A stretch of DNA of 64,000 nt from a virus (IMGVR_UViG_3300031707_004017), one strand, 5' to 3'; positions 8,391 to 48,480 are shown, counted from the stretch's first letter. Notes: a model not told the origin generated them from the sequence alone. Program-made: numbers and translations.

Positions 8391-10178
8391 TCAATTTGTT
8401 ACAATGTCGCTAATATCATACGCATCGACATCAATACTGGTACCCGCATCAATGTATACATCTGTTACAAAATTTAAATTTACATCATATTTTGATATCT
8501 TTTTCCTATCTACATTATACGTTAACAAATCACCATTATAATCTTCTTTAAGCCATCTAACAACCTTTGATATTTTATTAGAAGCGCCAACACTTTCATA
8601 CGATGAATTAACTTTTATAATTCGTTGACCATTATTAAGATACAAATATCCGTTAGAATGATAAACCATTCCATAATATATTTGTGGTAATTCACCTATA
8701 ATTGATCTATTTATAAACATTGAAAAATTTGCTGACTCAGTGGTCTCATAAACATCTAAACCGGCACCCACAACTAATATTTTATTTACATCAAATCCTC
8801 TACAAATAGCAATCGGTTGTCCCTTTAAACCACCTATAGTGTGTAAATTATCACTTGTTATAATATTAACCAAATTGAAATCTAATTTCTGAATTCTAGT
8901 ATAATCGTTATTAAACACGCCAACAACATAAAGACAATCGCCTGCTCCAGAATCATGAATCATTATTCTATAAGGCCGACCAATTGTTGTAACAGTACTA
9001 TATTCAGACACGTATAGTAAACTCGAATTAACCAACTTAATAATACGACTATTCAACGAGTCACAAATATAAACATTATTTGAATTAACAGTAATACCTT
9101 GTGGAAATTTTAACATTGTATTATCCGAGCCTGCTTCGCCATACAATCCGAATTCAATACCCGTGTATATAGCGGGTATAACATTTGATTGCAACTGCTT
9201 TACGACGTGTCTCTTTGTTCGTTGTGCTACATATAGCATATTGACTGTTGTAGATCCCCAAACAGACAAAGTATCGCCACCCACCTCACCTGCCATTACA
9301 AAGGCAACACCATTATAACCCAATATTCTTGATATACCAAGAGCTTCAGGATAAGGTGCAGAACTAACAATAGCAAATGGATCCGTCGATGGGTCAAGAA
9401 GTGATATTGTCCAAGGTCCATACCTTGGGGAGGTTGCATACAATAAAGTGCCATCAAACCACATTTGATTCGAACTAATCGATCTATAATCAGTACCAGG
9501 AGCTTTATGCCCATTCGATCGATCTATAAGTCCTAAATTACCAGTTCCGGGATATCGTGAAATAAATAAATGGCCATAACCACCTCGTAATCCATTATTA
9601 GAAGAGGGATACGAACTTCCATTACTTCCTAAAGCTGGTGGAGGGCCATCTGATACCGATTGATAATATAAATATGATAAATTACCATAATAAAACGCAT
9701 TTATGGCATATGGCTGCGGTAAAAGATTGGGGGTGTTTCCTCTAACATCTATAGATCTACTTCCTCGGTAAGTAAAAGAAGATCCATCGAATGTTAGTAA
9801 ATATGCAGTTCCGGTTCCAGGTCCGCCACCACCAGAAACAGCGGATAGAAATAATATTCTGTCGCCAGGATTAGTAACTGCAAAATAGTTGGCACTACCA
9901 ACTACAGAGCGGGCAATCGACCCAACCTCTGCAAATAAAGACCCGTTGAATGTATACGCCTTGAAATATGATCCCTCAATACGGAAGAGGTAACTCCCAT
10001 TATAAAAAATTGTTGAACCACCCGGAACTAGATATTCTGCAACAAGATTCAGTGTAGAACCCGTCCACTGATAAGCATGCATACCTGTGCTATCATTAAT
10101 AATAAGATAACCTGAATTATCTATTGTTGCATTACCGAAAGGAATAGATGTTGTGCTATATAATTTTAAAAAGGCCAT
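8391..10178 (-). CDS. NHL-repeat beta-propeller protein (595 aa), receptor-binding/fibre paralog 1 with extra N-terminal domain
   Basis: NHL-like motif YICDSLNSRIIKL; internal YVAQRTKRHVVKQL matches N-termini of the two downstream paralogs; conserved C-terminal DVYIDAGTSIDVDAYDISDIV; SD GAGGA. Confidence 0.8.
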   Translation of the reverse strand: MAFLKLYSTTSIPFGNATIDNSGYLIINDSTGMHAYQWTGSTLNLVAEYLVPGGSTIFYNGSYLFRIEGSYFKAYTFNGSLFAEVGSIARSVVGSANYFAVTNPGDRILFLSAVSGGGGPGTGTAYLLTFDGSSFTYRGSRSIDVRGNTPNLLPQPYAINAFYYGNLSYLYYQSVSDGPPPALGSNGSSYPSSNNGLRGGYGHLFISRYPGTGNLGLIDRSNGHKAPGTDYRSISSNQMWFDGTLLYATSPRYGPWTISLLDPSTDPFAIVSSAPYPEALGISRILGYNGVAFVMAGEVGGDTLSVWGSTTVNMLYVAQRTKRHVVKQLQSNVIPAIYTGIEFGLYGEAGSDNTMLKFPQGITVNSNNVYICDSLNSRIIKLVNSSLLYVSEYSTVTTIGRPYRIMIHDSGAGDCLYVVGVFNNDYTRIQKLDFNLVNIITSDNLHTIGGLKGQPIAICRGFDVNKILVVGAGLDVYETTESANFSMFINRSIIGELPQIYYGMVYHSNGYLYLNNGQRIIKVNSSYESVGASNKISKVVRWLKEDYNGDLLTYNVDRKKISKYDVNLNFVTDVYIDAGTSIDVDAYDISDIVTN

Positions 10179-12656: not shown

Positions 12657-13169
12657 TTACAATAAACCTTCGTCCATTAGCCTGTTCATAAAAGCTTCTC
12701 TATTAGTATACGTTTGAATGTCACCATCTTTATCGACAGTGTACTCTTCAAGAACAGGTTCGCCATCTTTTTCATCATAATTTGTTTTAATAGTGATGTA
12801 ACCATCATCTGTCTTGACAGAATCTTCTGTCAAATATTTTTTTGTCGATTGAATAATTGGTACAATTTGAAGAGCTGGTCCCGTCATCACATCAATCACC
12901 TCATCGACGACTTGCGCAATTTTACATTCGTCATCATCAGATGATTTTTTCTTTTCTGGTTTATAATGAGGTTGCGGCGACTTTTTCAACTTACCGCCCG
13001 GTCCCCACTTTGCACCTGGTTTCTGCTTAGCTAGCCACCATGACAAGGCCCACGGGTTTGTAATATTCTTATGTTTTTTCATAGCACGTGTTGTCCCAGA
13101 CCAATTTTTGGGCGACACTGCTTCTTTTAATATCAAATCTGCAATTTTATTAATATTTGATCCTAACAT
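12657..13169 (-). CDS. hypothetical Lys-rich protein (170 aa)
   Basis: ORF track only. Confidence 0.55.
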   Translation of the reverse strand: MLGSNINKIADLILKEAVSPKNWSGTTRAMKKHKNITNPWALSWWLAKQKPGAKWGPGGKLKKSPQPHYKPEKKKSSDDDECKIAQVVDEVIDVMTGPALQIVPIIQSTKKYLTEDSVKTDDGYITIKTNYDEKDGEPVLEEYTVDKDGDIQTYTNREAFMNRLMDEGLL

Positions 13170-14017
13170 GTCACCTCCTCTTTATTCATTGTATGATGAG
13201 ATTTATGATAATTTCTAGCTTTTTCTATGTATTCACTTAAATCTTTTTCCGTGATTATTTTAAATGTTAAATTGTTTTGTCTACAATATTCTTGTGCAGC
13301 TAAAAATTTTGCTTGATTTTCTTTACTAGCTACTCTGCTTAATGGTTTAATTTCTTCTAAAACACTTCCTACTAAAATATCAGGATAATACCATCGATTT
13401 TGTTCATTTATTGTATATTTAATTCTAATGCTATGCCTTTTAGTATAACATTGCTTTAAATCATCTAATTGCATAAATCTAGCTAATTCGTAAGAACTAT
13501 CATAAAAATGTCCGTAATAACATCCTTGAAAAAATCCTGTATATGGTTTCCATGTGCCGTCAATAAAAGATTTGAATAACCCATCTGAAATGTGTTGTAT
13601 TCTTTCTTCGCTAAATTGTGGCTTTGCTTTTAAAGTCTCACTAATTTGTCTTTTTGTTTCTTCAGTGTGTTTTACACCAGGTCTTCCTGTTAACGTTTCA
13701 CTTATTCTTTGTCTATTTTTCTCGTCTGACATTCTTAATTTTGCAGCGCAAGACAAACTACAAGTTTTATCATCTCGTTTACTATAAGTTGAAAACCATT
13801 CTTTACACCATGGACATTGCTTTTTATGTAATATTCTTGTTCTTTGACTGTCACCTACTTTTTTATTTCGTTCTTCAGTATAAAGTTTCTTTTTATACTC
13901 TGGATCAGACATTCGTGAATTTGCACCGCAGGAATTGCTACAAAATTTACGTTTTCTATATCGCCACGTCAAAAATGGTTTATTGCACCATTGACAATTT
14001 ATTTGAATTTTACTCAT
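13163..14017 (-). CDS. triple zinc-ribbon protein with C-terminal PD-(D/E)XK nuclease-like motif
   Basis: Three repeats of CxWCxKxF...KFCSxSCxAxxRMSD; C-terminal YYPDILVGSVLEEIKP fits PD...(D/E)xK. Confidence 0.6.
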   Translation of the reverse strand: MSKIQINCQWCNKPFLTWRYRKRKFCSNSCGANSRMSDPEYKKKLYTEERNKKVGDSQRTRILHKKQCPWCKEWFSTYSKRDDKTCSLSCAAKLRMSDEKNRQRISETLTGRPGVKHTEETKRQISETLKAKPQFSEERIQHISDGLFKSFIDGTWKPYTGFFQGCYYGHFYDSSYELARFMQLDDLKQCYTKRHSIRIKYTINEQNRWYYPDILVGSVLEEIKPLSRVASKENQAKFLAAQEYCRQNNLTFKIITEKDLSEYIEKARNYHKSHHTMNKEEVTC

Positions 14018-16828: not shown

Positions 16829-17548
16829 TTACATCGAATATTGTACGATTCTTGATTTTGATAACGTGAGATCATCTCTATTAATATTAAGCATTTCACA
16901 AATTTTATCAACATCATATTTATTAGACAGCATATTCAATACTTTAGAATCGAGGTTAATGTTATCAAATTCAGTTTTCAATGTGCTTAATATAGCGTCC
17001 ATAGCATCATCATTCTCAATCAACATTCCGCCTGTAAAATTAGCAATAGTTTTAAAATTTAATCTAGCATTGTCGTCAGTACTTAATAGTATTGAATAAA
17101 CTACGACTTTCTTTTGTTGCATGACTGCTACTGCTTTTCCCCATGTTTGCCCACACGTGCAACAATTTTCGTCCGGTATCATTCCGTGAGCCGGTGCGTC
17201 TCCTATCAAAAATGCTATTTTTCTACTATCATCTCGCCACTTCATGCTAGCAGCACCATCAATTATGCCATCAATGACTGCTTCAGCATTATCACCACCG
17301 CCATCAACAGAGATCTCTTTTATTTTGTCCGTAATTTCATTAACATCCATCAAATCAAATGTTATAGTAACAAATGGATCTCCTTGTGATGGATGATCAC
17401 GATATAAACTTAAACCTACTTTTAAATCAACCTCAAATTTTTCAATTAAATCTGATAAAATTGATTGCATTTTATCTTTAGCGCTTTGTATAAAACCCGA
17501 CATTGAACCTGTTATATCTACAATAAATAATAAATCTACTTTACTCAT
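16829..17548 (-). CDS. von Willebrand factor A (vWA) domain protein
   Basis: MIDAS motif DITGSMS near N-terminus, FLIGDAPAHG; SD GGAGGTG 7 nt upstream. Confidence 0.8.
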   Translation of the reverse strand: MSKVDLLFIVDITGSMSGFIQSAKDKMQSILSDLIEKFEVDLKVGLSLYRDHPSQGDPFVTITFDLMDVNEITDKIKEISVDGGGDNAEAVIDGIIDGAASMKWRDDSRKIAFLIGDAPAHGMIPDENCCTCGQTWGKAVAVMQQKKVVVYSILLSTDDNARLNFKTIANFTGGMLIENDDAMDAILSTLKTEFDNINLDSKVLNMLSNKYDVDKICEMLNINRDDLTLSKSRIVQYSM

Positions 17549-18777
17549 TTTACACCTCCGATTGGTAGATTTTCAAGATATCCATTAGTCGCGCCTGATA
17601 AATCTCGTAAACCATCTTCAACATATCGTTCGAACTGCTCACGAAATACAAAATAAATTCTCATAATACTTGCCGGTTTGTTTTGCCATTCATCGATCGA
17701 ATGTCTGTCGCCAATTACATCTTGAGATATTTTAGCACCTGCACCTATTCCAACTTCAGCATTCATTAATCGCATTGAAACATGTGTAGCATTCGTCACT
17801 ACAGATTCATTCATTATAGAATCTTCATAAAACACGGGCGCAGGCGCGGCCAAACAAACATTAATCGCAAAATCATTTGAATCAGTTGATTTAGTAGTTG
17901 ATTTAGTGTATTCTTCAATCTTCAAACTAGATGTAAAACTTTCAGGTGAAACATATGAATGTCTTCTAACTACACCTCTAAATCCTGTACATCCCTGACA
18001 TCCAGTTATACCTCTATAATCAGACATTGATAAAGAGCTAGAATCAGACATTGAAGAGTCACTAAGTCTACCTCTAGAATCAGACATTGATAAAGAATCA
18101 CGAAGTGTTGTTTGTCTAAATATTTTTGGAAATTTATTTTTCAATCTATTACCATTCTCGTAATCTGTCTTACAATCTTTCAATTGATAAAAACAAAAAC
18201 CAAAAGCGGGAACTGTATCTTCTTTACCAATTACAAGTTCAGGTATTGATTTTGTCATATCTTCAGTAAAATAAAATTGTCGAACAGTTCCGTCAGCCGA
18301 CTTAAATCCATCCCAATAAAATGGCATCGGATCTGCTATATAATTTTGTTCCGGCCATTTAAAATTGCACTCTGGACATAATCGACCATGTAAAAATTTG
18401 ACATTATGTATTGGACAACGTTCTTTATATTGTTCAAGACATAAACCATTAATTCTAGCGCCCGTTATAGGATTCATTCCCTTTACTGATGGTAAAATTG
18501 AAATATTGTTATTATTCATCGTCCAGTTAAACCACAACGCCCAATCAGCCTCAATCGGACAGACATATGATCCTTGACCGCCAATCCAAAAATTAGGTCG
18601 ATTTTTCAAATAATCTACCGGTAAACACGGTATAGGAATGCCGGGCGGCAATGATGAATTGTCATCATCTTTCTTTTTATCAGACCGCATTATTGCCGCG
18701 TAAAATCCATTTGATTCCATAACACGATGCATATTACTAGTCATTGAAAATCCTAAAATATTTCTTGATGATAACAT
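17545..18777 (-). CDS. hypothetical protein (410 aa) with Ser-rich tandem repeat
   Basis: ORF; SLSMSDSRGRLSDSSMSDSSSLSMSDYRG encoded by tandem DNA repeats near 18040-18110; 4-bp overlap with vWA gene. Confidence 0.65.
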   Translation of the reverse strand: MLSSRNILGFSMTSNMHRVMESNGFYAAIMRSDKKKDDDNSSLPPGIPIPCLPVDYLKNRPNFWIGGQGSYVCPIEADWALWFNWTMNNNNISILPSVKGMNPITGARINGLCLEQYKERCPIHNVKFLHGRLCPECNFKWPEQNYIADPMPFYWDGFKSADGTVRQFYFTEDMTKSIPELVIGKEDTVPAFGFCFYQLKDCKTDYENGNRLKNKFPKIFRQTTLRDSLSMSDSRGRLSDSSMSDSSSLSMSDYRGITGCQGCTGFRGVVRRHSYVSPESFTSSLKIEEYTKSTTKSTDSNDFAINVCLAAPAPVFYEDSIMNESVVTNATHVSMRLMNAEVGIGAGAKISQDVIGDRHSIDEWQNKPASIMRIYFVFREQFERYVEDGLRDLSGATNGYLENLPIGGVK

Positions 18778-18820
18778 AGCAAGCCTCTTCTATTAAAGGG
18801 AGGCAACATCCTCCCTTTGA

Positions 18821-19789
18821 TTAATATTGCGTATGAACTACTCGGAAAGGATCACCGTTTTTTGTTTTTGATAGTCGGCGCTTTAAAGTTGGCAGTTTAT
18901 CTTCTTCTTTTAACTCCGTATATGTCAGATACAATTTTGGATAAAGCGCCACCAAATTATCAAATGACTGTTGCAAATAAGATCTTAAATTACTCGGCTC
19001 TATTTTGTGACTTTCAGAAATTAACCGTAAGAAAATATATTTATCCTTGTTTGTATCAAAGTCGAGCCATTTTAAACCACATTCTTCACAATATCCATCA
19101 ACTAAAAGAATGTTTGAATGAACTGGACATTCGTATAAAACATTCATTGGATAATCGCCGACCTTGTAAACGGGTTTAATAGAAGAGTCCACAGCATATG
19201 TATTCGGCATTTCACGGTGTCGAGCTTGCCGCAACAGAATAAGAGACATATCAATGTCAACAGTGTCATTATCTTTAAAAATGATAACTGGTCGTCCCTT
19301 AGATCTTTTAAGCAGTTCACATTCAACTTCTGAAGAACAATCTTTATTATATTTGGCAAGTAGTTCAAAATCTGACCATTGACCTATTGGTTTGTTTTGT
19401 TGAATACTTGACAATAGCATTTTAAGCGTCACTGCATCATTAGTCGTAGTATATGAATCAGACATATTAGTAATCTGTAAATCATCTATCGGTACCTCAG
19501 TTTGTTTGAATGGATCACGACCTTGTAATATTAATGTGGCAACTTTTACTCGCGGTCCCGGCACAGAATGACCCTTACTTTTTAACGCGACATCAAGCTC
19601 TGCAACATTGACATTTGACTCAAGAATTTTAATACTTAAATCAGAATCATCAATAACACCGACATCATGTAGTGCACTAGTGATTGTTGCCTCAGCGTCA
19701 ACAAGCTCATCTAAATTATTTTTTAAAAACGGTTGAATTACAATTGCGGCTTCTTTAATGCGAGATACAATCGTAGGTTTTGTAAACAT
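18821..19789 (-). CDS. hypothetical protein (322 aa)
   Basis: ORF track only. Confidence 0.65.
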   Translation of the reverse strand: MFTKPTIVSRIKEAAIVIQPFLKNNLDELVDAEATITSALHDVGVIDDSDLSIKILESNVNVAELDVALKSKGHSVPGPRVKVATLILQGRDPFKQTEVPIDDLQITNMSDSYTTTNDAVTLKMLLSSIQQNKPIGQWSDFELLAKYNKDCSSEVECELLKRSKGRPVIIFKDNDTVDIDMSLILLRQARHREMPNTYAVDSSIKPVYKVGDYPMNVLYECPVHSNILLVDGYCEECGLKWLDFDTNKDKYIFLRLISESHKIEPSNLRSYLQQSFDNLVALYPKLYLTYTELKEEDKLPTLKRRLSKTKNGDPFRVVHTQY

Positions 19790-21184: not shown

Positions 21185-21694
21185 TTATTGCAAATCATAC
21201 ACATATACATCTATACCGCTATCGTGTGAATGTGTCTCAATTAATGGTTCAATTTTATTCCAATCACCGCCAGCTAAACCGCAACCAATTCGTGGCATAT
21301 GAATCGTCAAACCTTTTGCCGTTGCAAATTTAAATGACTTAATTAAAGCTATATTTAGCATGTCGTATTGCAAATAAGTTTTTGTATTTAAATGCTGTTT
21401 GCGATAACCTTGCTGGGCGATCATATTTGCCACCCATATTTCTTTACCTTGTATTAAAGATACAGGTATAAATTGAACATTACCTAAAGCAAATACTTTA
21501 TCATAATTCTCTTGAACTATTCTATCAATCCTACCTTTTCGCCAATCTCGATAAGCTATTTCAGGATTTGTCCACTTATCAGATAATGCCAGCACAAATC
21601 CCGCACCCCAGGCGCCTTTATCGTTGCAAACGTGACATATAAGTGATTTATCTTTGACAGGTGTCGTCGCATCACCGACTAAATAATGTATCAT
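21185..21694 (-). CDS. macro-domain (ADP-ribose binding/hydrolase) protein, tentative
   Basis: LICHVCNDKGAWGAGFVLAL resembles macro VNAAN..GGGV segment; TIHMPRIGCGLAGGDW resembles IAFPxIGTGxxGG. Confidence 0.5.
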   Translation of the reverse strand: MIHYLVGDATTPVKDKSLICHVCNDKGAWGAGFVLALSDKWTNPEIAYRDWRKGRIDRIVQENYDKVFALGNVQFIPVSLIQGKEIWVANMIAQQGYRKQHLNTKTYLQYDMLNIALIKSFKFATAKGLTIHMPRIGCGLAGGDWNKIEPLIETHSHDSGIDVYVYDLQ

Positions 21695-21751: not shown

Positions 21752-22564
21752 TTACTGAAAGAATGAATTGCTGGGTCCGATTTGAGTTTGACTTTTCCGT
21801 ATAATTGATTGACTTACGAGACCCATAGCTTTTCGAACTTCACTTGGCGAATTCTTCGCAGTCAACACGTTCGGAAAACCAATTAAACTAGCAATGGCTT
21901 CAAACTTTGCTTTGCGCCGCTGATCGTCATTTTGGTCATTATCAAAACCAACGTAAACCAAATAAAACATTTCTGATGTATGACAATCATCAGCCAATTT
22001 TTTGACCAAATCAGGCGCTTTATAATTCTGTGAATCATTGTCTTCACCGTCAGAAAAGGCCGCTATGATACACTTCGTCTGAATGCCGCCGTCCTTCAAT
22101 GTTTTAGCATAAGCCCTGATGCCTATTATAGCATCAACGACTGCATCGTAAAACCGTGTCGAATCACCTCTAGCCACATATTGGCTCCCGATTTTACCAA
22201 CGTCTGCTACCTTTTTGAAATCATAAAGAATTTTTTGAGCTGTTGAAAACGTTCTTGCACTAACAAGCATTGACCCTGCTTGTTTTGTCGCCTTCATTGC
22301 GTTGATGACAAGTTCATCATACGCTTCACGAACAACCATTTCATTAGATTTCATTGAAAAAGAATCATCCAAAAGAATCGATGATAATGTCACGCTATCT
22401 GTTTCAAGATCATCGACAGCCACACCTGTACAACCTAAGATGTTCGTATCATTTAAACCATTAATCATGATATTAGCAGCATCTGCGTTTATATCTCCGT
22501 CCTGCACTGCATTAGCAAACAAACTCTTGATACTGCCAACATTAACGGGATTCGTTGAACTCAT
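21752..22564 (-). CDS. vWA domain protein, TerY-like
   Basis: LLDDSFSM MIDAS motif, AAFSDGEDNDS; followed downstream by kinase and PP2C. Confidence 0.75.
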   Translation of the reverse strand: MSSTNPVNVGSIKSLFANAVQDGDINADAANIMINGLNDTNILGCTGVAVDDLETDSVTLSSILLDDSFSMKSNEMVVREAYDELVINAMKATKQAGSMLVSARTFSTAQKILYDFKKVADVGKIGSQYVARGDSTRFYDAVVDAIIGIRAYAKTLKDGGIQTKCIIAAFSDGEDNDSQNYKAPDLVKKLADDCHTSEMFYLVYVGFDNDQNDDQRRKAKFEAIASLIGFPNVLTAKNSPSEVRKAMGLVSQSIIRKSQTQIGPSNSFFQ

Positions 22565-22577
22565 GTCTATCTCCTTG

Positions 22578-23537
22578 TTATAGTTTTAAATCAGTGCTTT
22601 TTACGATGTTAATGCCAGACGATCTAAATTTATCAAACTCCGCTAGAGTTATAGCTTCAAAATCAATTGCCGGATGTTTAACTGAACTCATGCAATCTTC
22701 AAGAACATAAATCTTCTTAAGAATTGCTTTGTCAGTGTTTATAAAGAAATTATGAATTTGTATAATTGATGCAAGAACACAGTGACTTTTTGCTTCGCCG
22801 GCAATTATAACTTTATCATACTTCATAAGCATATTTAAAAAGTCAGTATTAAACCCGCCTTGCTTATGCGTAGGTATCTTGACTTCCGGACTCAAGATAC
22901 CATACATTTCTGTTTGAGGAATTTGACCCTTTTGTAAAAAATTCAACTGCGACTTTCTTGCGAATGCATGAAATGCTAAAACTTCAAACAGCGCCGGATC
23001 CATAGCTTGCCCAAGAGTGCCAAGGAGCGTATGGTACGTCCATATACAAAGCGGCTTATTTGCTTGCTGTAATAATTTTTCTGTGTAATCAATGCTAGCT
23101 ATTGGATCGATCGTCGGTCGAATTTCACCATCGTTAATACTCTTCGTTAATGCATGTCTATTTTTCGGTGTGTCCTTATACACTTCTGTAAAATATGCCG
23201 GTTTTTCACCTGTCTGTAATTGCCACCATGACCGAAAGAAAATCTGGAACAATAAATGCGAATCCAAAGATCCAAAAATCGCAGTTATTTTTTCCAAATT
23301 ATTAAAGATGAAATCAACGACTCGTCGAATGTCGTCCAATGATCCAGGCACAGATAATGAACCATTTTCGTGACAAAAATCAATTTGCATATCAATAAGT
23401 AGCAATGCCACTCTTGACCCCGCCTTGTCATTCGCAGATGCCGGTATTTGTAGCCCATCAGCCTCTTTCTCGACATCAGCAAGCCTCGGCAAATACAATG
23501 TTCCGACCTTATTTGAATCATAAAACGATGGCTTCAT
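22578..23537 (-). CDS. isochorismatase-family cysteine hydrolase, nicotinamidase (PncA)-like
   Basis: RVALLLIDMQIDFC (cf. PncA ..D.QNDFC) and downstream GEAKSHCVLAS putative nucleophile Cys; N-terminal extension of ~40 aa. Confidence 0.6.
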   Translation of the reverse strand: MKPSFYDSNKVGTLYLPRLADVEKEADGLQIPASANDKAGSRVALLLIDMQIDFCHENGSLSVPGSLDDIRRVVDFIFNNLEKITAIFGSLDSHLLFQIFFRSWWQLQTGEKPAYFTEVYKDTPKNRHALTKSINDGEIRPTIDPIASIDYTEKLLQQANKPLCIWTYHTLLGTLGQAMDPALFEVLAFHAFARKSQLNFLQKGQIPQTEMYGILSPEVKIPTHKQGGFNTDFLNMLMKYDKVIIAGEAKSHCVLASIIQIHNFFINTDKAILKKIYVLEDCMSSVKHPAIDFEAITLAEFDKFRSSGINIVKSTDLKL

Positions 23538-23547
23538 CTCGACCTCC

Positions 23548-25425
23548 TTATTTTGATTGTGTAAGTGTTAAATAGCAAATTTTATTTGTAGAAATTGCTA
23601 ATAAGCCTTGCTTATAAATCTGCAAACTTTGATCGCTATTAACAAATTCAGCCGTCGATGACTTTAATGACAATGAACCATGCCGCTCAATAACAATACC
23701 TGCATCAGTGGGATGAATTATAGCCGATCCAACTAACTGTTTACCATGAATATTTTTTAACAAATCAGAATTGATAGATTCTTCAGTTTTTTTCTCAAGT
23801 ATTTTTGCTTTATCGTTAATTATATGCCAGTGTGAATAAGTACGACCATTATATAAACTTTTTCGTAAAAGTATTACGTTGTCAATTGACATGCACACAT
23901 CAATATCAATGATTTGACCTTTAAGTTCATCCATTTCAATTTCATACCGACCAATCGCAGAAAATACGAAATATTTATGTTGATTAAATATCTGGAACAT
24001 ACCTAAACCAAAATCATTTTTGCCGACCTGCAACCACGTTTGATTTTCCATCGCAGCCGTGACTTCTTCTTCAATGACTTGCCCATTAGTATATTGTCCC
24101 TTCATAATCATATTAGTTGTTAATCGATACAAATAATTACTACTACAAGAAAACACTGGTTCATTATGAAAACTCAACGTGGTCAACTTTGCTATTAAAA
24201 CAACATTGCTGTCTTTTACATCCATAATAAGTAAATCACTATCTTGATTGATCACTAAACAAGACGGTAAAAAATAATCGTACTTAAATTGTGGTTCAAT
24301 CCCTTTCCACAAAAGAAATGACTGCTTAAATTTTTCAGTAATTGAAACGAACCTTGTCTCGCCATCCTCATAACTTATTATGATAATTTTATCATTGATA
24401 ACTTTTGAAAATAAAATTACGCCTTTAGTTTCGTATATCATAATGATATCACATTTTTCTCTATCTATATGTTTTGGTGATATAATACTAGTTAAATCTA
24501 CGACTTGTTGTGGCGCAGTTTTTTGACACTGTGGACATTTCGATCTTGTCTTAGAGAAATAAGTATTACAAGAAGCACATTTATTAAATGTCCCTATTAG
24601 TTCTTGCAAAGACTGCACCGGTAAATTGCTTCTCTCACCCTTACAAAAAATGTTCGAAAAATAATGCAACAAATCGTCGCTTAACGTTTCAGGATGCAAT
24701 GCTATTTTTGGATATACGACTTCTTTTTCTAAAACCCAAACTTTTTTCTGAGCTCGTCGTATCATAGTATTGAACGTCTTATGAGTCCCACCATAAGGAT
24801 GCACAAACAACAAGCTTTTAAAAAGCATGACAGCAAAAGCGTACCAATCAGACTCTATCGTAAAAGACGGCTTTCTTGTTAAATCTACACCGTATAATGT
24901 CGGATCAATAAATGAATCTGTGCCTACAAAACACGGATACCGACCAAATTGAAACGAATCCACATCGATGTAATAAACTGATGAATCATTTTCGACAAAT
25001 AATTTATTGACATCGTTCAAATCGCCGACAATGACATTACTACTATTAATAGCGTCAAGCAGCAATTTAGAGTTAGAAAAGATTTGTATTACGTCATTAG
25101 TCGTAATTTGATGTTGATTTCGATATTTAATATTAGATAAATCGATAAACGACACAGTCCTTGGTGCTATAGCCATCGCAAAACCATTAATTTTACCCGC
25201 TGTATCGGTCACGACATCTATCGGCGCTAAAACATTCGGCGGTAAACTAAAGCCGCACTTTAAAAAAGCTTGCAACTTTTGCGCTCGCTCAAGAGTTGGA
25301 TCATGATAAATTTTAAATGCAATATTGTTATTATATTTAACAACATTAGCCTCGCCACCACTGCCAAGCACATGTTTCGTATCAATGTCAATTATTTTGT
25401 TCTGGTAAACTATTCGCATTTTCAA
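23548..25425 (-). CDS. protein kinase-like protein with Zn-ribbon (625 aa)
   Basis: Gly-rich loop LGSGGEANVV, AFKIY lysine, VIVGDLNDVNKL catalytic-loop-like, IDVDSFQFG DFG-like; CASCNTYFSKTRSKCPQCQK zinc ribbon. Confidence 0.6.
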   Translation of the reverse strand: MKMRIVYQNKIIDIDTKHVLGSGGEANVVKYNNNIAFKIYHDPTLERAQKLQAFLKCGFSLPPNVLAPIDVVTDTAGKINGFAMAIAPRTVSFIDLSNIKYRNQHQITTNDVIQIFSNSKLLLDAINSSNVIVGDLNDVNKLFVENDSSVYYIDVDSFQFGRYPCFVGTDSFIDPTLYGVDLTRKPSFTIESDWYAFAVMLFKSLLFVHPYGGTHKTFNTMIRRAQKKVWVLEKEVVYPKIALHPETLSDDLLHYFSNIFCKGERSNLPVQSLQELIGTFNKCASCNTYFSKTRSKCPQCQKTAPQQVVDLTSIISPKHIDREKCDIIMIYETKGVILFSKVINDKIIIISYEDGETRFVSITEKFKQSFLLWKGIEPQFKYDYFLPSCLVINQDSDLLIMDVKDSNVVLIAKLTTLSFHNEPVFSCSSNYLYRLTTNMIMKGQYTNGQVIEEEVTAAMENQTWLQVGKNDFGLGMFQIFNQHKYFVFSAIGRYEIEMDELKGQIIDIDVCMSIDNVILLRKSLYNGRTYSHWHIINDKAKILEKKTEESINSDLLKNIHGKQLVGSAIIHPTDAGIVIERHGSLSLKSSTAEFVNSDQSLQIYKQGLLAISTNKICYLTLTQSK

Positions 25426-26200
25426 TCACCTTTTCAAAAACGATGCAAGATGCATCATCATAAAATATTTTTCTGTCTGACCAAACGTTAAATTTCCTCT
25501 GCAATCCGCGTTTCTTAGTCCCGTAAAGTTCGCTCGTTAATTGTCGCTCGACTAAAGGTATTAAACCATCAGAACCAATGGCAATCTTATTTACAACTTT
25601 TATATCATACATTGATATTTGTAAGCCTTGTAACTTTGTCGGTTGATTTACTAACGCTTGTCTTGGAACATTGTCATACATTAAATAATGCGGGCCACCG
25701 TCTTGATGAATTATTGTCGCATTGTCATCAATAATTATCACGCCATCTCCGCAATGACCAATAATAATATAATCGCTCAAAACAATACCGAAAATAAACG
25801 TCGTCAATAAATATTCATCGATAAATTTAATTTGGTCTTGAATGTCGTCAATTCGCAGACCACGTAATAAATCATTAATAAATTTATAGCTTGTTGGTTC
25901 AATGATTCCTTTAACGACATTACTAATGATCTGTTGAGACGTATTAGCTGTGAACGCATCAACGTCTTCTTTAAACGGTGAATAATAATCGTCCAACGCC
26001 CCTAAAGATAAATTATTAAGAATAAGATTACCAAATAAACACGCACCAACCTCAGTAAATTGTCCACTGCCACAACCGTCACAAATTATACCATAAACAT
26101 GTTGTTTATCTATTAATGTCGCACAAAAATCTTGTTTATTTGTTTTAAACAATACATGATCGCGACCAATTATCATAGCCTTGTTAACGTTCCACATCAT
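25388..26200 (-). CDS. PP2C-family Ser/Thr protein phosphatase
   Basis: ICDGCGSG, IIIGHCGDGVIII, IAIGSDGL metal-binding Asp motifs; overlaps kinase gene by 38 nt (translational coupling). Confidence 0.65.
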   Translation of the reverse strand: MMWNVNKAMIIGRDHVLFKTNKQDFCATLIDKQHVYGIICDGCGSGQFTEVGACLFGNLILNNLSLGALDDYYSPFKEDVDAFTANTSQQIISNVVKGIIEPTSYKFINDLLRGLRIDDIQDQIKFIDEYLLTTFIFGIVLSDYIIIGHCGDGVIIIDDNATIIHQDGGPHYLMYDNVPRQALVNQPTKLQGLQISMYDIKVVNKIAIGSDGLIPLVERQLTSELYGTKKRGLQRKFNVWSDRKIFYDDASCIVFEKVIENANSLPEQNN

Positions 26201-26862
26201 TTAATTATTTCTCCCGTTTTATACGACCAAAATAATAAATCTAGCTCATCAAAATCTAATTCGTATCGTTTTGCAAAATCTTTCATAATGAGTTCAACTT
26301 TGCAATATTCTTTTTTATTACATGGTTTTTGCACGTTACAACCTAATAAATTAAGCATCGAAATTATGTGCTTATCAAGAATCGCAAAGCCCTTGAACCC
26401 GATGTTTCTAAGAAAATGACTACTTTCTTTGTAACCAATACCACATAAAAATTTAGCAAGAAATTCGCGTAAAGCAAGACCATCGTATTGATCAAATATT
26501 TTTCGTACATCAAGATCACAATAACCTTTTAAAAAATGTCGTGTTCTAACAATGTAATTAGCCCTTGACCTCGGAAATCTATACACGCCTTTTAAGCACG
26601 TCGATATATCTTTTTCATTGCCTAAAAACAACGTGTCGTCATCTATAACACTAACAGCTTTCATCGCCATTTTAGCGCTAGCGTTAGCTGTCAAAATACA
26701 AAAGATTAATTCTTGAAATAATTGTTTAGATGAACCTTTACCTATAACTTGAAATTCATTCAATCGTTTTTGAATCGCAGATTCTACACTAACATAATAC
26801 TGCCTCAAGTCATTAACTGTAGCAATTGTCACGGCATTATCGACTTTAATAATTTCAATCAT
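26197..26862 (-). CDS. ogg: 8-oxoguanine DNA glycosylase/AP lyase, archaeal Ogg2-type (HhH-GPD)
   Basis: LFQELIFCILTANASAKMAMKA and GIGYKESSHFLRNIGFKGFAILDKHI (HhH with catalytic Lys and Asp). Confidence 0.75.
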   Translation of the reverse strand: MIEIIKVDNAVTIATVNDLRQYYVSVESAIQKRLNEFQVIGKGSSKQLFQELIFCILTANASAKMAMKAVSVIDDDTLFLGNEKDISTCLKGVYRFPRSRANYIVRTRHFLKGYCDLDVRKIFDQYDGLALREFLAKFLCGIGYKESSHFLRNIGFKGFAILDKHIISMLNLLGCNVQKPCNKKEYCKVELIMKDFAKRYELDFDELDLLFWSYKTGEIIK

Positions 26863-27743
26863 TTACTTATCGGCCAATGTCGTTTAAAATTTATTTTTTT
26901 AAACAGCGCTGTCCGTGAAATACTTATCGGCCAATGTCGTTTAAAATTTGCCTTTAAATATCGTTGAACAACCGGATGATCTTTTAAGCGATCTCGTTGT
27001 TCAGTTATAGCATCAATATTTGTTAAGTAATTATTTTCCGTCATAATCCAGCATTTTAATATTTTATCAACATCATCATAAGTCGGAGCGCCTAATTGAT
27101 CTAAATCGCTATTGCTTACTCCTAATCCGTCAGTTGGAACAGCTTCAATACATAATTTAAGAGATTCAATTTGTTTCTCGTCTAGCAACATATTTTTTAA
27201 TATAAATTTAGAAATTTCATAAACTTCAGTTTTCCAAAGATGTTGAATCATACCATAATCGCCCCAATCACCCATGATTGTACTAAATCCTAGTAAAAAC
27301 TCCGTATAATTATCCGTGCTAAGAACCATACCTTTATTTTGAGCCGCAAGATCATACAATTTAATCATTCGCATTCGAGCTTTCAAATTACCTAATCGAA
27401 TCTTAAAAGCTACATCACTATGATCAGCTGTATCATAGTCATCTACTATTATAGGAGCAATTTGACGATAAGTATGTGATAAATCAATTTCTTTAAAATC
27501 ATGGCAAAAAGCTACTCCTGTCAAAGCTGCCCGCTGTATTTCGACTTCTGAATTTGTCGCAATAGGTATGCTACGACCTATAAGCGAAATATGTAAACAA
27601 TCGCAAACTGGTCGTGCTAATGCTGCGCAAAGCGTGCTATCAATTCCGCCAGAAATACCGATAATAAGACTTTGAAGTTTATGCTCAATTATATAGTCTT
27701 CAAGTTCTTGCCGAATATTCTTGACAACATCTTTGCAATTCAT
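26859..27743 (-). CDS. nadE: NH3-dependent NAD+ synthetase
   Basis: PP-loop IGISGGIDSTLCAAL ~35 aa from N-terminus; length 294 aa. Confidence 0.85.
   Translation of the reverse strand: MNCKDVVKNIRQELEDYIIEHKLQSLIIGISGGIDSTLCAALARPVCDCLHISLIGRSIPIATNSEVEIQRAALTGVAFCHDFKEIDLSHTYRQIAPIIVDDYDTADHSDVAFKIRLGNLKARMRMIKLYDLAAQNKGMVLSTDNYTEFLLGFSTIMGDWGDYGMIQHLWKTEVYEISKFILKNMLLDEKQIESLKLCIEAVPTDGLGVSNSDLDQLGAPTYDDVDKILKCWIMTENNYLTNIDAITEQRDRLKDHPVVQRYLKANFKRHWPISISRTALFKKINFKRHWPISK
26864..26977. repeat. imperfect 57-bp tandem duplication (2 copies) at nadE 3' end / ogg start
   Basis: acttatcggccaatgtcgtttaaaattt at 26864-26891 and 26921-26948; encodes FKKINFKRHWPIS twice at NadE C-terminus. Confidence 0.7.
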
Positions 27744-28621: not shown

Positions 28622-28921
28622 TTGGAGGTACGTGTGTTTGAAGTGCAGAATAATATTAATTATAAAGTCTTCATTAACGCACAGAAAAAAGCAATTGAAG
28701 TGTCAAAATGGATAGAAGGTGAACGTATTAAATCTGATCCCGGCACGCGCTATATACTATTTTGGATACATGCATACGCAAAAGATTTTAAACAAGCATG
28801 GAACAGATCAAGATGCAAAAAATGTAAAAATGAATATTGCAGATATAAAAATGTTTCTAAATGTAACGATTTTTCACCTGATCCAGAACTACAACATGTT
28901 AACAAAGAAACTAATAATTGA
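28622..28921 (+). CDS. small Cys-rich protein (99 aa)
   Basis: RCKKCKNEYCRYKNVSKC; overlaps HPr start. Confidence 0.4.
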   Translation: MEVRVFEVQNNINYKVFINAQKKAIEVSKWIEGERIKSDPGTRYILFWIHAYAKDFKQAWNRSRCKKCKNEYCRYKNVSKCNDFSPDPELQHVNKETNN

Positions 28922-29165
28922 AAATGATCGAGGACTGCATGCTAGACCGTCTGCACTAATTGTTGAAAAAATATTGCCATTTAAATGTAATGTCAAAATC
29001 ACTTGCAACAAAGTCGAAGCAGATGCAAAAAGCGTATTGTCTTTATTATCATTAATTGCTCAAAAAGGATTTGAAGTTGAAATTGTCATTGATGGAGAAA
29101 ATGAAATAGAAGCAATGAAAGTAATGATTGATTTATTTCATAGCAAATTTAAAGAAGCCTACTAG
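28896..29165 (+). CDS. ptsH: phosphocarrier protein HPr (PTS)
   Basis: MLTKKLIIENDRGLHARPSALIV...ADAKSVLSLLSL: His15 in GLHARP and Ser46 in KS(V/I)L both at canonical positions; 89 aa; start chosen inside ORF 28719..29165 at in-frame Met 60. Confidence 0.85.
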   Translation: MLTKKLIIENDRGLHARPSALIVEKILPFKCNVKITCNKVEADAKSVLSLLSLIAQKGFEVEIVIDGENEIEAMKVMIDLFHSKFKEAY

Positions 29166-29688
29166 ATTTAAGTCTAATAAATAAAACTGACACAAGCGGA
29201 TCTTTCACTGTGGGTATTATATCACTTTCAAACCACATACACTTAGCTTTCTTTTCTAATTCTGATCCATCACCGGTCGCATTTTGCATTTCGAAATCTG
29301 TCAAATTTATTGAATACAAATAATAAACAGTATCAGATGATTTTGTCGCAAAACAAGTGCCAAGACTTAATAAATATTTAGATTGGACTTCGTATCCTGC
29401 TTCTTCTTTCAATTCTAAAATAGCAGTGTCTCTTGGATCGCCACCTTCATAACCACCAGTTATAGAACTTATTACTGGTTTAAATCCCCAACAAGGTGTC
29501 ACTTCATTTCGCAATAAATATTCTATTTTGTAATTTGAAAATCTATATGGCAATATTGAAATTATTTTACCATCACATCGCGTCTCATGAGAAAAAACAT
29601 AACCCTCAACCCCTTCTTCGGGCGCTACTAAATTTTTAAGTGATAACCATTTATTAAAAAATAATGTTTGGACATTCATAATCAACAA
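29149..29688 (-). CDS. Nudix-like hydrolase (diverged Nudix box)
   Basis: GGYEGGDPRDTAILELKEEAGYEV approximates Gx5Ex7REUxEExGU (R replaced by L). Confidence 0.5.
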   Translation of the reverse strand: MLIMNVQTLFFNKWLSLKNLVAPEEGVEGYVFSHETRCDGKIISILPYRFSNYKIEYLLRNEVTPCWGFKPVISSITGGYEGGDPRDTAILELKEEAGYEVQSKYLLSLGTCFATKSSDTVYYLYSINLTDFEMQNATGDGSELEKKAKCMWFESDIIPTVKDPLVSVLFIRLKSSRLL

Positions 29689-30014
29689 AAAGCCTCATCT
29701 AAATTATTAAGAAAAGCCTGCTCGTCTTTATAAATGCTAAGTACGCTTGTCAATCCGGTTAATTTAAATGTGTTTAAGATGTCTTCTTTTAACCCATAGA
29801 TACATATGTTTAATTTTGAATCTGCTTCAACTAAATAGCTAATCGCTGTACTGTCGACTGTGCTCACTTCAGACATGTCGAGTGCAATATTTGACCAACC
29901 TTCACCCATTAATTTCTTTATTCGTATTAATAAATGACTGATATTTGTCGCAAGTAACATGCCACTAACTTCTAATAGTATATACGTACTATTGTTACTT
30001 TCACGAATATCCAT
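29682..30014 (-). CDS. STAS-domain anti-sigma factor antagonist (SpoIIAA/RsbV-like)
   Basis: LDMSEVSTVDSTAISYL (cf. DLSGVSFMDSSGLGVL) and GLKEDILNTFKLTGLTSVLSIY. Confidence 0.7.
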   Translation of the reverse strand: MDIRESNNSTYILLEVSGMLLATNISHLLIRIKKLMGEGWSNIALDMSEVSTVDSTAISYLVEADSKLNICIYGLKEDILNTFKLTGLTSVLSIYKDEQAFLNNLDEAFC

Positions 30015-34605: not shown

Positions 34606-35790
34606 TTAAATAACTTTACTGTCTACAATCTCTCCGCGCCTCATCATCTCTCTCAATTCGTCCTTCGAATACTTCATCTTACCTTGCTCATCAAAATACT
34701 TTCTATATTCGCCCTCTAACTCTCTCATCCGCTCCCTTCCTCGCTCAATTCGATCCTTAAAAAACTTTCTTACTCCCGCAACACTCTTACTCATATTCTC
34801 GTCATCGTCTGCGACTACATGTGTCCTACCCCACTCGCTAGTCCGTATCCACTCACGTATACTATCATCACTCATACTCAAAAAAGGCTCATCATGCTCT
34901 AACAGCCTTTGAGCATTCTTATAATCACTACTGACTTGCCTCACTATACTAACTACTCTCTTAACTCTACGTTCGTCATCTCTCTTCTTTCGCTCATCTA
35001 ACCGCACATTCCTGCGTCGTTCTTTCTCAGCTCTAGCTTCATCAGACACTCTCTTCCTCACTTCTTCCCTTGGCACTTCTTGCGAACTCAAATTTATTAT
35101 ATATCGATAATGATACTCTTGTATATTATATCCACCTGCTCCAATTGCTCGAGCATGAAAGTCCCAGTCCCTCTTCTTATCATCTACTAACTTTCCCTCA
35201 AACTCAAAACCCTTTGACCCTTGCCTCACTCTACCAGACACATTAACAAAATCAGCTGTCACATATTTCGCTATCGCCTGCTTCAACTTCATCAAATTAT
35301 TCTCCCTGATCCCTTGCTTCACTCTCTCTACATACAAATCTCTCTTTTTCCTATTAATCCTAAACTCGCTCAATTTAACATTTTGAAACGGCCATACACT
35401 CGGTACGTCGTACACTCGAAATAACAACTCAGTCTCCATTGACTCTTTACCAAATATATTACTCACTCCATCATATAACGACCCTCGCACATTCAAATTT
35501 CGATCGTCGCTCTTACTGCCCTCAATCCTCTTCACACTTCCATTTATCTCTCTCTCGGCCTGATCACACAACCTCTCGATCATCGGCTCACATATGTCGA
35601 CAATCTTTTGCTGAACGCTTGTCATCTCTTTATCTTTACTACTTTCATCTCTATCGCTAATCGTACCAGTTAACTTCCTCTTTGACTTAGGATGCCGTTT
35701 CAAATATCCTCGTTGCTCCTCGTCAGATAAATCGCTCCACTTACGAGCTATCTTCAAAAACTCGACTTGTATTTGAGCTATATACTTCAT
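34606..35790 (-). CDS. hypothetical protein (394 aa), Arg/Glu-rich C-terminal half; paralogous N-terminus to 15479..16702
   Basis: Shared N-terminal domain (see 15479..16702). Confidence 0.65.
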   Translation of the reverse strand: MKYIAQIQVEFLKIARKWSDLSDEEQRGYLKRHPKSKRKLTGTISDRDESSKDKEMTSVQQKIVDICEPMIERLCDQAEREINGSVKRIEGSKSDDRNLNVRGSLYDGVSNIFGKESMETELLFRVYDVPSVWPFQNVKLSEFRINRKKRDLYVERVKQGIRENNLMKLKQAIAKYVTADFVNVSGRVRQGSKGFEFEGKLVDDKKRDWDFHARAIGAGGYNIQEYHYRYIINLSSQEVPREEVRKRVSDEARAEKERRRNVRLDERKKRDDERRVKRVVSIVRQVSSDYKNAQRLLEHDEPFLSMSDDSIREWIRTSEWGRTHVVADDDENMSKSVAGVRKFFKDRIERGRERMRELEGEYRKYFDEQGKMKYSKDELREMMRRGEIVDSKVI

Positions 35791-36683: not shown

Positions 36684-37575
36684 ATGATTTCATTAATTAT
36701 CTGGTCATTTATCGGTCTATTCCTATTCATTACATTATGCAATAGCATTGTATTTGTGAAACAGCAATCACTAGTAGTATTAGAACGCCTTGGCAAATTT
36801 AAAAGGATCGCTACTGCCGGAATGTCGTTCAAAGCACCATTCATAGACAACAAAGCTGGAACAGTCGAACTGCGCATCCAACAACTCGATGTTAAAGTTG
36901 AAACAAAAACTCTTGATAATGTATTCGCAACAGTCTTAGTATCTGTACAATACTTCATTGATGAAAAGAGCGCCTACAATGCTTTTTACAAATTACGTGA
37001 ACCTCACAAACAAATTACTTCTTACGTCTTCGATGTAGTACGAGCAAAAGTACCATCTCTCAATTTAGATGATGTATTTGCTAAAAGATGAAATTGCAAA
37101 CGCTGTAAAAAGCGAATTAACAGAAACAATGGACGATTTTGGCTACGGCATTACAAAAGCACTCATCACAGACATTGACCCTGATTCAAAAGTCAAAGAC
37201 GCAATGAACGAAATCAACGCTGCTCAAAGGTTACGAATGGCCGCAACAGAAAAAGGTGAAGCAGAAAGAATCTTAAAAGTAAAACAAGCAGAAGCAGAAG
37301 CACAAAGCAAAGCACTACAAGGCAAAGGCATCGCAGACCAAAGAAAAGCTATAGACGGACTAAAATCATCTGTAAATGACTTCAAACTGGCCGTAGAAGG
37401 CAGCTCGTCCCAAGACGTAATGAACCTCGTCCTAATAACACAATACTTCGACATGCTCAAAGAAGTCGGAATCGGAAGCAAAGCGATCTTAATTCCCTAT
37501 TCAGCAGGCGGAGCTAAAACAACAGCTGACGAAATCAGAAACGCTCTTATGATTGCATCAGAAACAATAAAATAA
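36684..37575 (+). pseudogene. SPFH/band-7 (stomatin/HflK-like) gene split by frameshift at A4 run ~37084-37087
   Basis: ORF1 ...VVLERLGKF...LNLDDVFAKR* and ORF2 (+1 frame) DEIANAVKSELTETMDDFGYGITKALITDIDPDSKVKDAMNEINAAQRLRMAA together reconstruct one SPFH domain; N-terminal TM helix. Confidence 0.65.
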
Positions 37576-38589
37576 ACAATTACGTAACATCGACGACGAA
37601 CATTGCACTCTCACTCAACGACTTTCAACTTGATTTAAACAATGTCACAAATAATTGATGATAACACTCTAAAATGTCAATTTTCTTTTGAATCATAAGA
37701 AGATCTCAATGTTTCGTAAGTACACGTTTACATGGATGGTTACTACATTGGTTAGGTTTTATTGTTTGCCGAATAATGATCCTCCATAAAATATGGTAGA
37801 AAATTGTCACATCTTACAATCTACCGTTGCGCAACCGTTGTGCGAAAGAATTTTTTCTTTTTGGATCCTAAACGGTATAGGAGCGCTCAATGGATATCGT
37901 TGAATTTTTCAATCCCTACAGTGTAGAACATCTCAAAGCCTATGAACATTTATCTACATGGAAAATGGCCCACAGACTTCATACTGAAAAATTTGGAATA
38001 TTCGAGAGAATGTCTGGCAGGTCGGGATAGTAAATAAAATGGCAAATGCTTGGCTCGAACAAGCTAAAGCAGGACATATTTTTGGCATGCCTCATTTTGA
38101 TCAATAACTAGACTCACACACAAAAAAACTAATCTCTTCTCTACCCAAAAAATGAGAACTAAAGAACAACCCTTTCTTAATTGGACATACACTTGTGATA
38201 TTTGCAAAGACAATATCATTATAGTATCCACCAATGATAGGATCTGTTAGATTACCTGAAAAGGTTGGGAAGAACTCACGTTTTGTATCTATTTTAGCAC
38301 ATGTTTGTCCTAAACAAGAATGCAAAGAAAAAGCAAAAATTGCTTTTCCAGATTATTATTATGAAGAACAACAAATTATCGTTTCTAATTGATTCCAGAT
38401 CAAACACAAATTGAAAAAATGATAGACGCCCTGGATAGGACAGAGATAAATGAGAATATCTCTTTAGAGTATTTCTCAATGATCGTAGCAGGATGTCTGA
38501 TGACAAAAATGAAAAGATCGATTGGATAGATTTACAAGGACATAGCTCACAATTGGTTAGAGCGCTACGCTGTCACTAATCTCCCCACC

Positions 38590-39450: not shown

Positions 39451-39483
39451 ATCGCGCATAAAGATCTTGACGAGTGAAATTTC
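39451..39483. repeat. degenerate copy of boundary repeat (atcgcgcataaagatcttgacgagtgaaattt)
   Basis: Aligns with 39981..40017. Confidence 0.5.
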
Positions 39484-40815: not shown

Positions 40816-40840
40816 GTTTTCTCCTTGATGACCGGTCCAG

Positions 40841-48479: not shown

Positions 48480-48480
48480 A

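Follow-up and report, generated by a model that had tools for sequence, protein, structure and literature searches.

TerY-P modules comprise a von Willebrand factor A (vWA) protein that resembles TerY, a phosphatase of the PP2C type and a Ser/Thr kinase that carries a zinc ribbon at its C-terminus, as set out in passages of PMC11090510 that cite Anantharaman et al. 2012; the same passages link them to tellurite resistance, DNA-processing and restriction systems and carry the hypothesis of a metal-sensing phospho-switch. According to part of PMC11090510, Gao et al. 2020 described a variant whose kinase bears an OB fold and which acts against phages as a system in its own right. The best-studied relative for our purposes is the yegL-pphC-yegI trio of Escherichia coli, which we take to be of the TerY-P type (bioRxiv 10.1101/819920, 10.1101/303594). 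Its kinase, YegI, is an experimentally active Ser/Thr kinase with an odd VGD catalytic loop and a DSD motif replacing DFG, and residues K39, D141 and S162 are essential for its autophosphorylation (bioRxiv 10.1101/819920). Here we analyze a related locus in IMGVR_UViG_3300031707_004017, of which a 64,000-nt stretch (64 kb; "the window") was examined and which probably derives from a phage, and a huge one. Positions 21752-26200 of the minus strand encode a vWA protein, a zinc-ribbon kinase and a PP2C phosphatase, together with a PncA-like protein of the isochorismatase fold. An initial annotation described this region as a TerY-P-like triad with an isochorismatase-family gene embedded in it. 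We find that the PncA-like gene is a fixed fourth member of the cassette, not a passenger, and, judging from the anatomy and surroundings of the cassette, we hold with moderate confidence that it is a phosphorylation-gated module for nicotinamide salvage.

Clustered genes for nicotinamide adenine dinucleotide (NAD) metabolism are themselves well known. Jumbo phages carry NAD+ clusters that include pncB-nadD-nadE, with pncA also mentioned (in sections of PMC11662467), and NARP1-3 are established phage counter-defence routes (bioRxiv 10.1101/2024.02.11.579819 and PMC13464706, in the portions concerned). In bacteria, pncA-pncB-nadD-nadE salvage operons are regulated by NrtR (PMC2330246, in part). 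A vWA protein under the control of dedicated kinases and a phosphatase would have a parallel in the archaeal ArnA/ArnB complex, the stability of which, like the regulation of motility, depends on phosphorylation by ArnC/ArnD and on the phosphatase PP2A (passages of PMC7472852 and PMC5300886).

Conservation of the four-gene cassette

The genes of the cassette co-occur far beyond chance. We gathered 171 kinase loci from species-representative bacterial genomes (the best 80 of 502), from IMG/VR (80 of 96) and from encoding contigs, called open reading frames (ORFs) around them, searched these with iteratively built hidden Markov models (HMMs), and collapsed the loci to 95 kinase lineages at 80% identity. 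Where a lineage had 4 kb or more of flank on each side, the three partners all accompanied the kinase in 20 of 20 viral and 29 of 37 bacterial loci, and PP2C alone did so in six bacterial loci. The co-occurrence of the three triad genes that the initial annotation expected of related genomes is thus borne out, and the window trio is retained in related huge-phage contigs. When viral loci were instead seeded on the enzyme, the kinase was present in all but 5 of 77, and three of these five were cut by contig ends. Among 50,697 GenBank phage records, kinase and enzyme each matched the same four (three uncultured phages of 462-595 kb and one gut phage fragment), three of which were also matched by the vWA protein. 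A PP2C-kinase pair lacking both the enzyme and this vWA family was seen in 17 loci, including that of E. coli.

Two gene orders dominate, each on one strand: PP2C-KIN-ISO-VWA, the order of the window (KIN, kinase; ISO, isochorismatase-fold enzyme), and its circular permutation ISO-VWA-PP2C-KIN. In nearly every cassette the enzyme gene lies next to that of the vWA protein, and the two keep together when the order is permuted. Those for PP2C and the kinase are always adjacent and frequently overlap. Across 72 cassettes the pairwise-distance matrices of the four proteins correlate with r = 0.79-0.91, the highest value being that of ISO with VWA, which fits inheritance as a unit even though shared phylogeny accounts for part of the correlation. 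The kinase was matched in 502 of the bacterial species genomes that were scanned, as well as in dozens of contigs of viral origin, huge phages included, and the cassette is therefore not rare. The window's closest syntenic relatives, IMG/VR contigs that measure 73-424 kb, show identities of 43-66% for the kinase and of up to 77% for the enzyme among the matches listed. The permuted order was noted in dozens of viral contigs of 40-165 kb (L109-L170 and L177-L246, many from sample 3300045988), the kinases of which are shorter (563-576 aa) and matched in tblastn only over query residues ~20-302; a human faecal phage fragment, GenBank MT837596, carries it as well.

The long PncA-like family (~310 aa) also stands alone. 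In metagenome loci gathered by a scan with a narrow enzyme alignment, 14 of 25 well-flanked examples had no kinase, PP2C or vWA gene, and these stand-alone loci (L266, L270, L274, L279 and others) shared no common conserved neighborhood. The enzyme therefore appears to be autonomous, and the trio looks like a regulatory add-on to it. An apparent long PncA fusion in one locus (L097) was set aside as a probable artefact of longest-ORF calling.

Predicted activities of the cassette proteins

When the window proteins were scanned alone, PP2C was the only cassette member above a Pfam curated threshold, and the kinase, isochorismatase and vWA assignments were resolved by deeper profiles and, for the kinase and the vWA protein, structure models. 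The kinase scored 19.6 bits against Pfam Pkinase, under the cut-off of 31.7. Its 245 homologues are mostly full-length (~620 aa), and in an alignment of 22 of them the Gly-rich loop G21-G22-E23, K36, D133, N135, N138, D152 and D154 are invariant, as are the zinc-ribbon cysteines C281, C284, C295 and C298. The catalytic loop, GDxNDxN, is followed by IDVDSFQF; both the V-G-D133 loop and D152-V-D154-S155, in which DxDS replaces DFG, are invariant or nearly so in the same alignment. The family profile matched E. coli YegI with a probability of 99.3% (E 9e-21) over 309 columns that run through the Cys-rich segment and stop after the ribbon, and K36, D133 and S155 of the window kinase align with the YegI residues K39, D141 and S162. 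An AlphaFold model (pLDDT, the predicted local distance difference test, 90.4; pTM, the predicted template modeling score, 0.88) comprises a kinase domain (residues 1-275), the ribbon (278-300) and an all-beta region (~320-620) that is itself modeled at a pLDDT of ~90. Foldseek matched it to LRRK2, in which a kinase is combined with a WD40 propeller, to the kinases CK2, DAPK and Aurora, and to the propellers of DDB1 and clathrin. Recognition of a kinase fold, on which the triad depended, is thus secure, and the C-terminal domain is predicted from a high-confidence model to be a soluble all-beta propeller, likely a sensor or docking domain.

The phosphatase retains D24, D41-G42, G151-D152-G153, D211 and D248-D249 as invariant residues. 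Its profile matched E. coli PphC in hhalign with a probability of 96% (E 4e-9), and its PDB matches were bacterial PP2Cs. The start of the kinase gene determines how far the two genes overlap: the 38 nt given by the initial annotation hold for a TTG start at 25425, whereas the public gene calls (P0001) take the ATG two codons downstream, at 25419, which yields a 623-aa kinase and an overlap of 32 nt. Relatives show overlaps of 4-32 nt.

The enzyme has an intact active site. Its catalytic triad (D49, K203 and C253) is invariant in 24 diverse homologues, and so are D92, H94 and H169, an Asp-His-His set within DxH and WPxH motifs that we take to be the metal ligands. The best PDB matches of the family profile are nicotinamidases, led by yeast Pnc1 (2h0r, E 1e-15) and followed by PncA (1ilw, 2wt9, 3pl1), and in the profile alignment the triad and the DxH and WPxH motifs fall in register with those of Pnc1. 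The isochorismatase-fold protein is accordingly a predicted nicotinamidase, which would hydrolyze nicotinamide.

The vWA protein had no match in direct Pfam, NCBIfam and PADLOC scans, and for this reason its assignment relied on homologue profiles and a structure model. PF00092 was matched by 13 of 21 homologues; the MIDAS (metal-ion-dependent adhesion site) residues D66-x-S68-x-S70, T136 and D172 are invariant, as are S251, S253 and S258 in a Ser-rich C-terminal tail. In its structure model (pLDDT 90.5), Rea1-MIDAS, integrin I and vWF-A domains were matched at a probability of 1.0, and an archaeal ArnAB structure was among the fold matches at rank 18. The DDSFSM motif pointed out earlier therefore lies within a complete MIDAS. 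The affiliation of this protein to a particular vWA family is less definite: its family profile gave an insignificant match (4% probability) to the single E. coli YegL sequence and only a marginal one to PDB sequences, although several homologues have been named "YegL" by JGI.

Set against the published TerY-P definition, the window thus provides a zinc-ribbon kinase, an adjacent PP2C gene and a vWA fold with a MIDAS, the YegL match being insignificant and a PADLOC TerY match absent. No window protein matched the PADLOC TerY-P models, a comparison that lacks power because the E. coli trio itself fails to match (YegI, PphC and YegL gave no significant hit; YegL against TerY, E 0.03). With YegI and PphC as homologues of the kinase and phosphatase, we consider the label "TerY-P-like" justified for the trio. 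The part of the comparison that does not carry over is the surroundings, as ter genes or restriction systems lie near TerY-P modules whereas the window cassette keeps company with NAD salvage; ter and restriction genes were not among the recurrent neighbor families of the cassette. The likeness to E. coli extends over the vWA/PP2C/kinase combination, the VGD loop, the DFG replacement, the Cys-rich ribbon and the PP2C/kinase overlap. In contrast to that trio, the window has a nicotinamidase gene as a fourth member, its kinase is modeled with a soluble beta-propeller in place of the two-pass membrane region of YegI, and for its vWA protein no specific tie to YegL emerged. The modules of Gao et al., as far as they are described in the passages at hand, follow the same three-gene logic, but their kinase is fused with an OB fold in place of a zinc ribbon and propeller, and they include no nicotinamidase.

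Table 1. Features of the minus-strand operon in the window
Feature	Position	Strand	Basis or remark
NAD synthase NadE	26859-27743	-	Pfam NAD_synthase, 122.7 bits; first gene of operon
Ogg-type 8-oxoguanine DNA glycosylase	26197-26862	-	Pfam Ogg-HhH, 169 bits; 4-nt overlap with each neighbor
PP2C-type Ser/Thr phosphatase, PphC-like	25388-26200	-	Pfam PP2C_2, 44.9 bits (gathering score 24)
YegI-family Ser/Thr kinase, 623 aa (ATG) or 625 aa (TTG)	23548-25419/25425	-	Profile against YegI; AlphaFold model
Kinase catalytic domain, residues 1-275	24595-25419	-	Invariant residues aligned to YegI
Kinase catalytic segment GDLNDVN...IDVDSFQF	24943-25026	-	Translation checked
Kinase four-Cys Zn ribbon CASC...CPQC, CASCNTYFSKTRSKCPQC	24526-24579	-	Translation checked; four Cys invariant
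Kinase C-terminal all-beta domain, residues ~320-620, predicted beta-propeller	23560-24462	-	AlphaFold and Foldseek
Long-form PncA-like nicotinamidase (predicted), isochorismatase fold, 319 aa	22578-23537	-	Active-site residues; profile against PDB
vWA protein, 270 aa, complete MIDAS motif	21752-22564	-	Homologue profiles; structure model
vWA DDSFS (MIDAS DxSxS)	22355-22369	-	Translation checked
Macro domain protein, ADP-ribose-binding or hydrolase type	21185-21694	-	PDB 5e3b macrodomain, E 6e-35; phrog_335 match

NAD genes and other features of the window

The commonest extra neighbors of the cassette are NAD-metabolism genes. We clustered the other ORFs near the cassette, scanned representatives with Pfam and counted kinase lineages: NrtR (Nudix plus NrtR_WHD) was found in 15, NadE, NAPRTase and a 484-aa NAPRTase-like phosphoribosyltransferase in 14 each, a NadD-like nucleotidyltransferase in 8, NAD kinase in 6, NADAR in 5, and macro also in 5, these last being viral and having the macro gene after the cassette. 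At least one of these genes lay within 10 kb in 44 of the 95 lineages, including 17 of the 26 viral ones. In a gammaproteobacterial metagenome-assembled genome (L090) the cassette sits inside a full salvage operon, NrtR-PP2C-KIN-VWA-ISO-NadD-NadK-NAPRT...NadE, and a 203-kb viral contig (L170) carries NADAR, NadD, ISO, VWA, PP2C, KIN, NAPRT and NadE; the whole PncB-NadD-NadE set is present in some relatives (L170 and L158). A 326-kb relative of the window reads NAPRTase-x-NadE-PP2C-KIN-RRM-ISO-VWA-macro. Because this context recurs in bacteria and phages alike, it points to control of NAD or nicotinamide rather than to the general rewiring of host phospho-signaling suggested initially.

Comparison with described NAD loci places the cassette at the junction of two literatures. 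With jumbo-phage clusters and NARPs it shares clustered phage NAD genes and a proposed maintenance of NAD+ during infection. NARP1-3, however, use Adps/Namat, Nampt/Nmnat or PnuC/NadR, whereas the window would use a deamidating PncA route that is predicted, and for which NAD+ restoration is proposed only. Term searches of the texts of PMC11662467 and PMC13464706, as available, returned no protein kinase, PP2C or vWA component, and those of PMC9503650 (a survey of viral NAD+-ADP-ribose systems) and PMC2330246 no kinase/PP2C/vWA module coupled to a nicotinamidase, within the text covered. The gene set and regulator of NrtR operons adjoin the cassette in many bacterial loci, but "protein kinase", "phosphatase" and "von Willebrand" did not occur in the searchable text of PMC2330246, and the window PncA is of the long form of ~310 aa. 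Within the literature searched, the coupling of a kinase/PP2C/vWA trio to a nicotinamidase thus appears to be undescribed. The resemblance to ArnA/ArnB is by analogy only. In the sections of the two papers concerned, that system has a kinase and a phosphatase of other families, its output is the regulation of motility and it lacks an enzyme partner.

In the window itself, seven closely packed minus-strand genes run from 27743 down to 21185 in the order NadE-Ogg-PP2C-kinase-PncA-vWA-macro (Table 1). Successive genes overlap by 4, 4 and 32-38 nt and are then separated by gaps of 10, 13 and 57 nt, the macro gene starting 57 nt downstream of the vWA gene. An AGGAGG ribosome-binding site precedes NadE within a 123-nt divergent intergenic region. 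A scan for promoters and terminators found sites no more numerous than in shuffled sequence, and Rfam had no match anywhere in the window, so that no NAD riboswitch was detected. Ogg is probably a passenger in the operon; it occupies the position between NadE and PP2C in only four viral loci and is absent from it in relatives L004-L006. At the NadE/Ogg junction lies a perfect 29-nt direct repeat (26864-26892 and 26921-26949, 57-nt spacing), in which the last ten NadE codons are duplicated just upstream. As L004-L006 have no Ogg at this position, the repeat may be the scar of its insertion.

Encoded 3 kb upstream is a Nudix protein weakly similar to ADP-ribose pyrophosphatase. Just upstream of the operon are genes for an HPr phosphocarrier (28719-29165, plus strand), a Nudix protein (29149-29688, minus strand) and a STAS-domain protein (29682-30014, minus strand), and an HPr gene is also found near the cassette in relatives L004-L006. 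STAS is the fold of anti-sigma-factor antagonists. Phosphorylation on Ser is classically known for both STAS and HPr proteins, and the kinase and PP2C could therefore have these two as additional clients. A 394-aa ORF at 34606-35790 was suspected of encoding a NAPRTase, having the same length as that of a relative, but it had no Pfam or PHROG match and was rejected.

Elsewhere in the window, PHROG matches pointed to baseplate-wedge proteins for a 1479-aa laminin-G/PKD protein and also to an Ig-rich protein of the Hoc-like kind. A nucleotide search with the cassette region returned no near-identical relative among GenBank phages, and a tblastn search of the same phages with a 595-aa ORF of the structural region (8391-10178) returned no match. 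The second vWA gene reported 5 kb from the triad, at 16829-17548, does exist (VWA_4, 43 bits in Pfam), but it belongs to another family and no evidence was found of a link to the triad. It overlaps a 410-aa ORF (17545-18777) by 4 nt, and this ORF and the next (18821-19789) have CPxH...CxxC ribbon-like motifs and no Pfam or PHROG match. The block 16829-19789 is kept only in 7-8 closely related phage contigs and may be a separate vWA-based system. Among tail-like genes, an ORF at 13163-14017 has an N-terminal domain of the TnsA-like endonuclease type as well as HNH/endonuclease matches in PHROG, and it probably encodes an endonuclease that is homing or mobile. Two overlapping ORFs, at 36684-37091 (profile positions 3-115) and 37069-37575 (115-175), share a single SPFH/Band-7 domain between them; the split could reflect a frameshift or an error of sequencing, or else frameshifting that is programmed. 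G+C content rises from ~0.32-0.37 to 0.40-0.46 across ~38000-52000, a part that holds glutamine amidotransferase-like and COOH-NH2 ligase-like ORFs, and ORFs at 42892-44025 and 52811-53428 each match part of an ATP-dependent DNA ligase PHROG.

Possible functions of the cassette

Nicotinamide is a product of NAD-consuming enzymes, among them NADase defence effectors. If the cassette is a gated salvage module, its nicotinamidase would convert nicotinamide to nicotinic acid, which would enter the Preiss-Handler route through PncB, NadD and NadE, with the window phage supplying only NadE of the three. Kinase and phosphatase would form a reversible switch, probably acting on the vWA protein, the enzyme or both; the vWA protein would probably be a Mg2+-dependent adaptor bound to the nicotinamidase, a phospho-acceptor, or both; and the propeller would probably provide a sensor or docking surface. 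The unit was likely acquired by the phage from bacteria and would serve to keep up NAD+, or to restore it, in the course of infection, perhaps in the face of NAD-depleting defences. A bolder version, which we regard as tentative and rather doubtful, is that the cassette gives phages a signal-gated fourth route of NAD+ reconstitution, through deamidation by PncA followed by PncB, NadD and NadE, in which the switch would sense NAD+ breakdown via the propeller or the vWA protein and turn recycling on. A counter-defence role, as raised initially, is possible through such NAD+ replenishment only.

Several observations weigh against the salvage reading. The PncA-like protein scored 25.8 bits against Pfam isochorismatase, just under the cut-off of 27, and the isochorismatase superfamily has members whose substrates are various other amides. 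Roughly half of the lineages have no further NAD gene within 10 kb. The NAPRTase/pncB and NadD HMMs had no match in the 64-kb window, and the stretch therefore does not encode the whole route; of a set sufficient to rebuild NAD+ from NADase products it holds a PncA-like protein and NadE only. The link from the kinase to the enzyme or the vWA protein is proposed from the anatomy of the proteins and their gene context, and the matrix correlations, as noted, owe something to shared ancestry. No capsid, portal or terminase gene was recognized in the 64 kb, so that phage identity rests on the relatives and the tail-like proteins. Finally, the relevant part of PMC11090510 connects other TerY-P modules with systems of defence and of DNA processing, and for that reason a role in conflict is conceivable.

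Three other explanations deserve consideration. One could regard the trio as a self-contained TerY-P switch, which rewires host phospho-signaling or serves as a generic counter-defence, and the isochorismatase gene as an unrelated insertion; the trio does fit the published definition with its vWA protein, PP2C and zinc-ribbon kinase, its kinase and phosphatase are homologous to YegI and PphC, and the 17 loci with a PP2C-kinase pair, E. coli among them, manage without the enzyme or this vWA family. We nevertheless think this very unlikely, because the enzyme is present in nearly every well-flanked locus of this kinase subfamily, adjoins the vWA gene and is permuted with it, has an invariant active site, and shares with its partners an NAD-gene context common to bacteria and phages. 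The trio might instead regulate expression of the NAD operon, through a zinc ribbon that binds nucleic acid or through phosphorylation of a regulator (NrtR, for example), with the enzyme as one co-regulated cargo gene among several. NrtR lies directly upstream of PP2C in its 15 lineages, and nucleic-acid binding has been suggested for the TerY-P kinase ribbon in a passage of PMC11090510, but the only near-universal partners are the nicotinamidase and the vWA protein, NrtR, NadE and PncB each occurring in only ~15% of lineages, and NrtR is missing from the window and from its close relatives. This makes control of expression an improbable explanation.

A defence or superinfection-exclusion module is a further candidate, in which the kinase switch would unleash the nicotinamidase on infection and destroy nicotinamide, so that rivals dependent on NARP1 or NARP2 would starve while the owner uses nicotinic acid. 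Consistent with such a conflict, Gao et al. 2020 (via part of PMC11090510) reported TerY-P-like modules that act against phages as stand-alone systems, NARP1 and NARP2 depend on nicotinamide in the portions of the NARP literature consulted, and NADAR and macro neighbors are typical of ADP-ribose conflicts. However, the cassette is found inside NrtR-regulated salvage operons of a housekeeping style, with NadD, NadE, NadK and PncB, and not in defence islands; no PADLOC model matches it, though the E. coli control also fails; and it is widespread in phages themselves. We thus consider a conflict module of this kind unlikely, and phosphorylation-gated nicotinamide salvage remains the explanation we prefer.

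TerY-P and YegI-PphC-YegL modules are widespread and functionally opaque, and E. coli YegI has been characterized biochemically only. Coupling to a nicotinamidase offers an output that can be assayed, as nicotinamidase activity or as NAD+ level, and, if the bolder version with a signal-gated fourth route is right, bacterial Ser/Thr signaling modules of the YegI/PphC/YegL class would thereby receive a first physiological output. Since NAD+ depletion and reconstitution form a central front of the conflict between phages and their hosts, a regulated deamidating salvage carried by phages would represent a new pathway with a new layer of post-translational control. It would likewise suggest Ser/Thr phosphorylation as a means by which NAD salvage is regulated in some bacteria.

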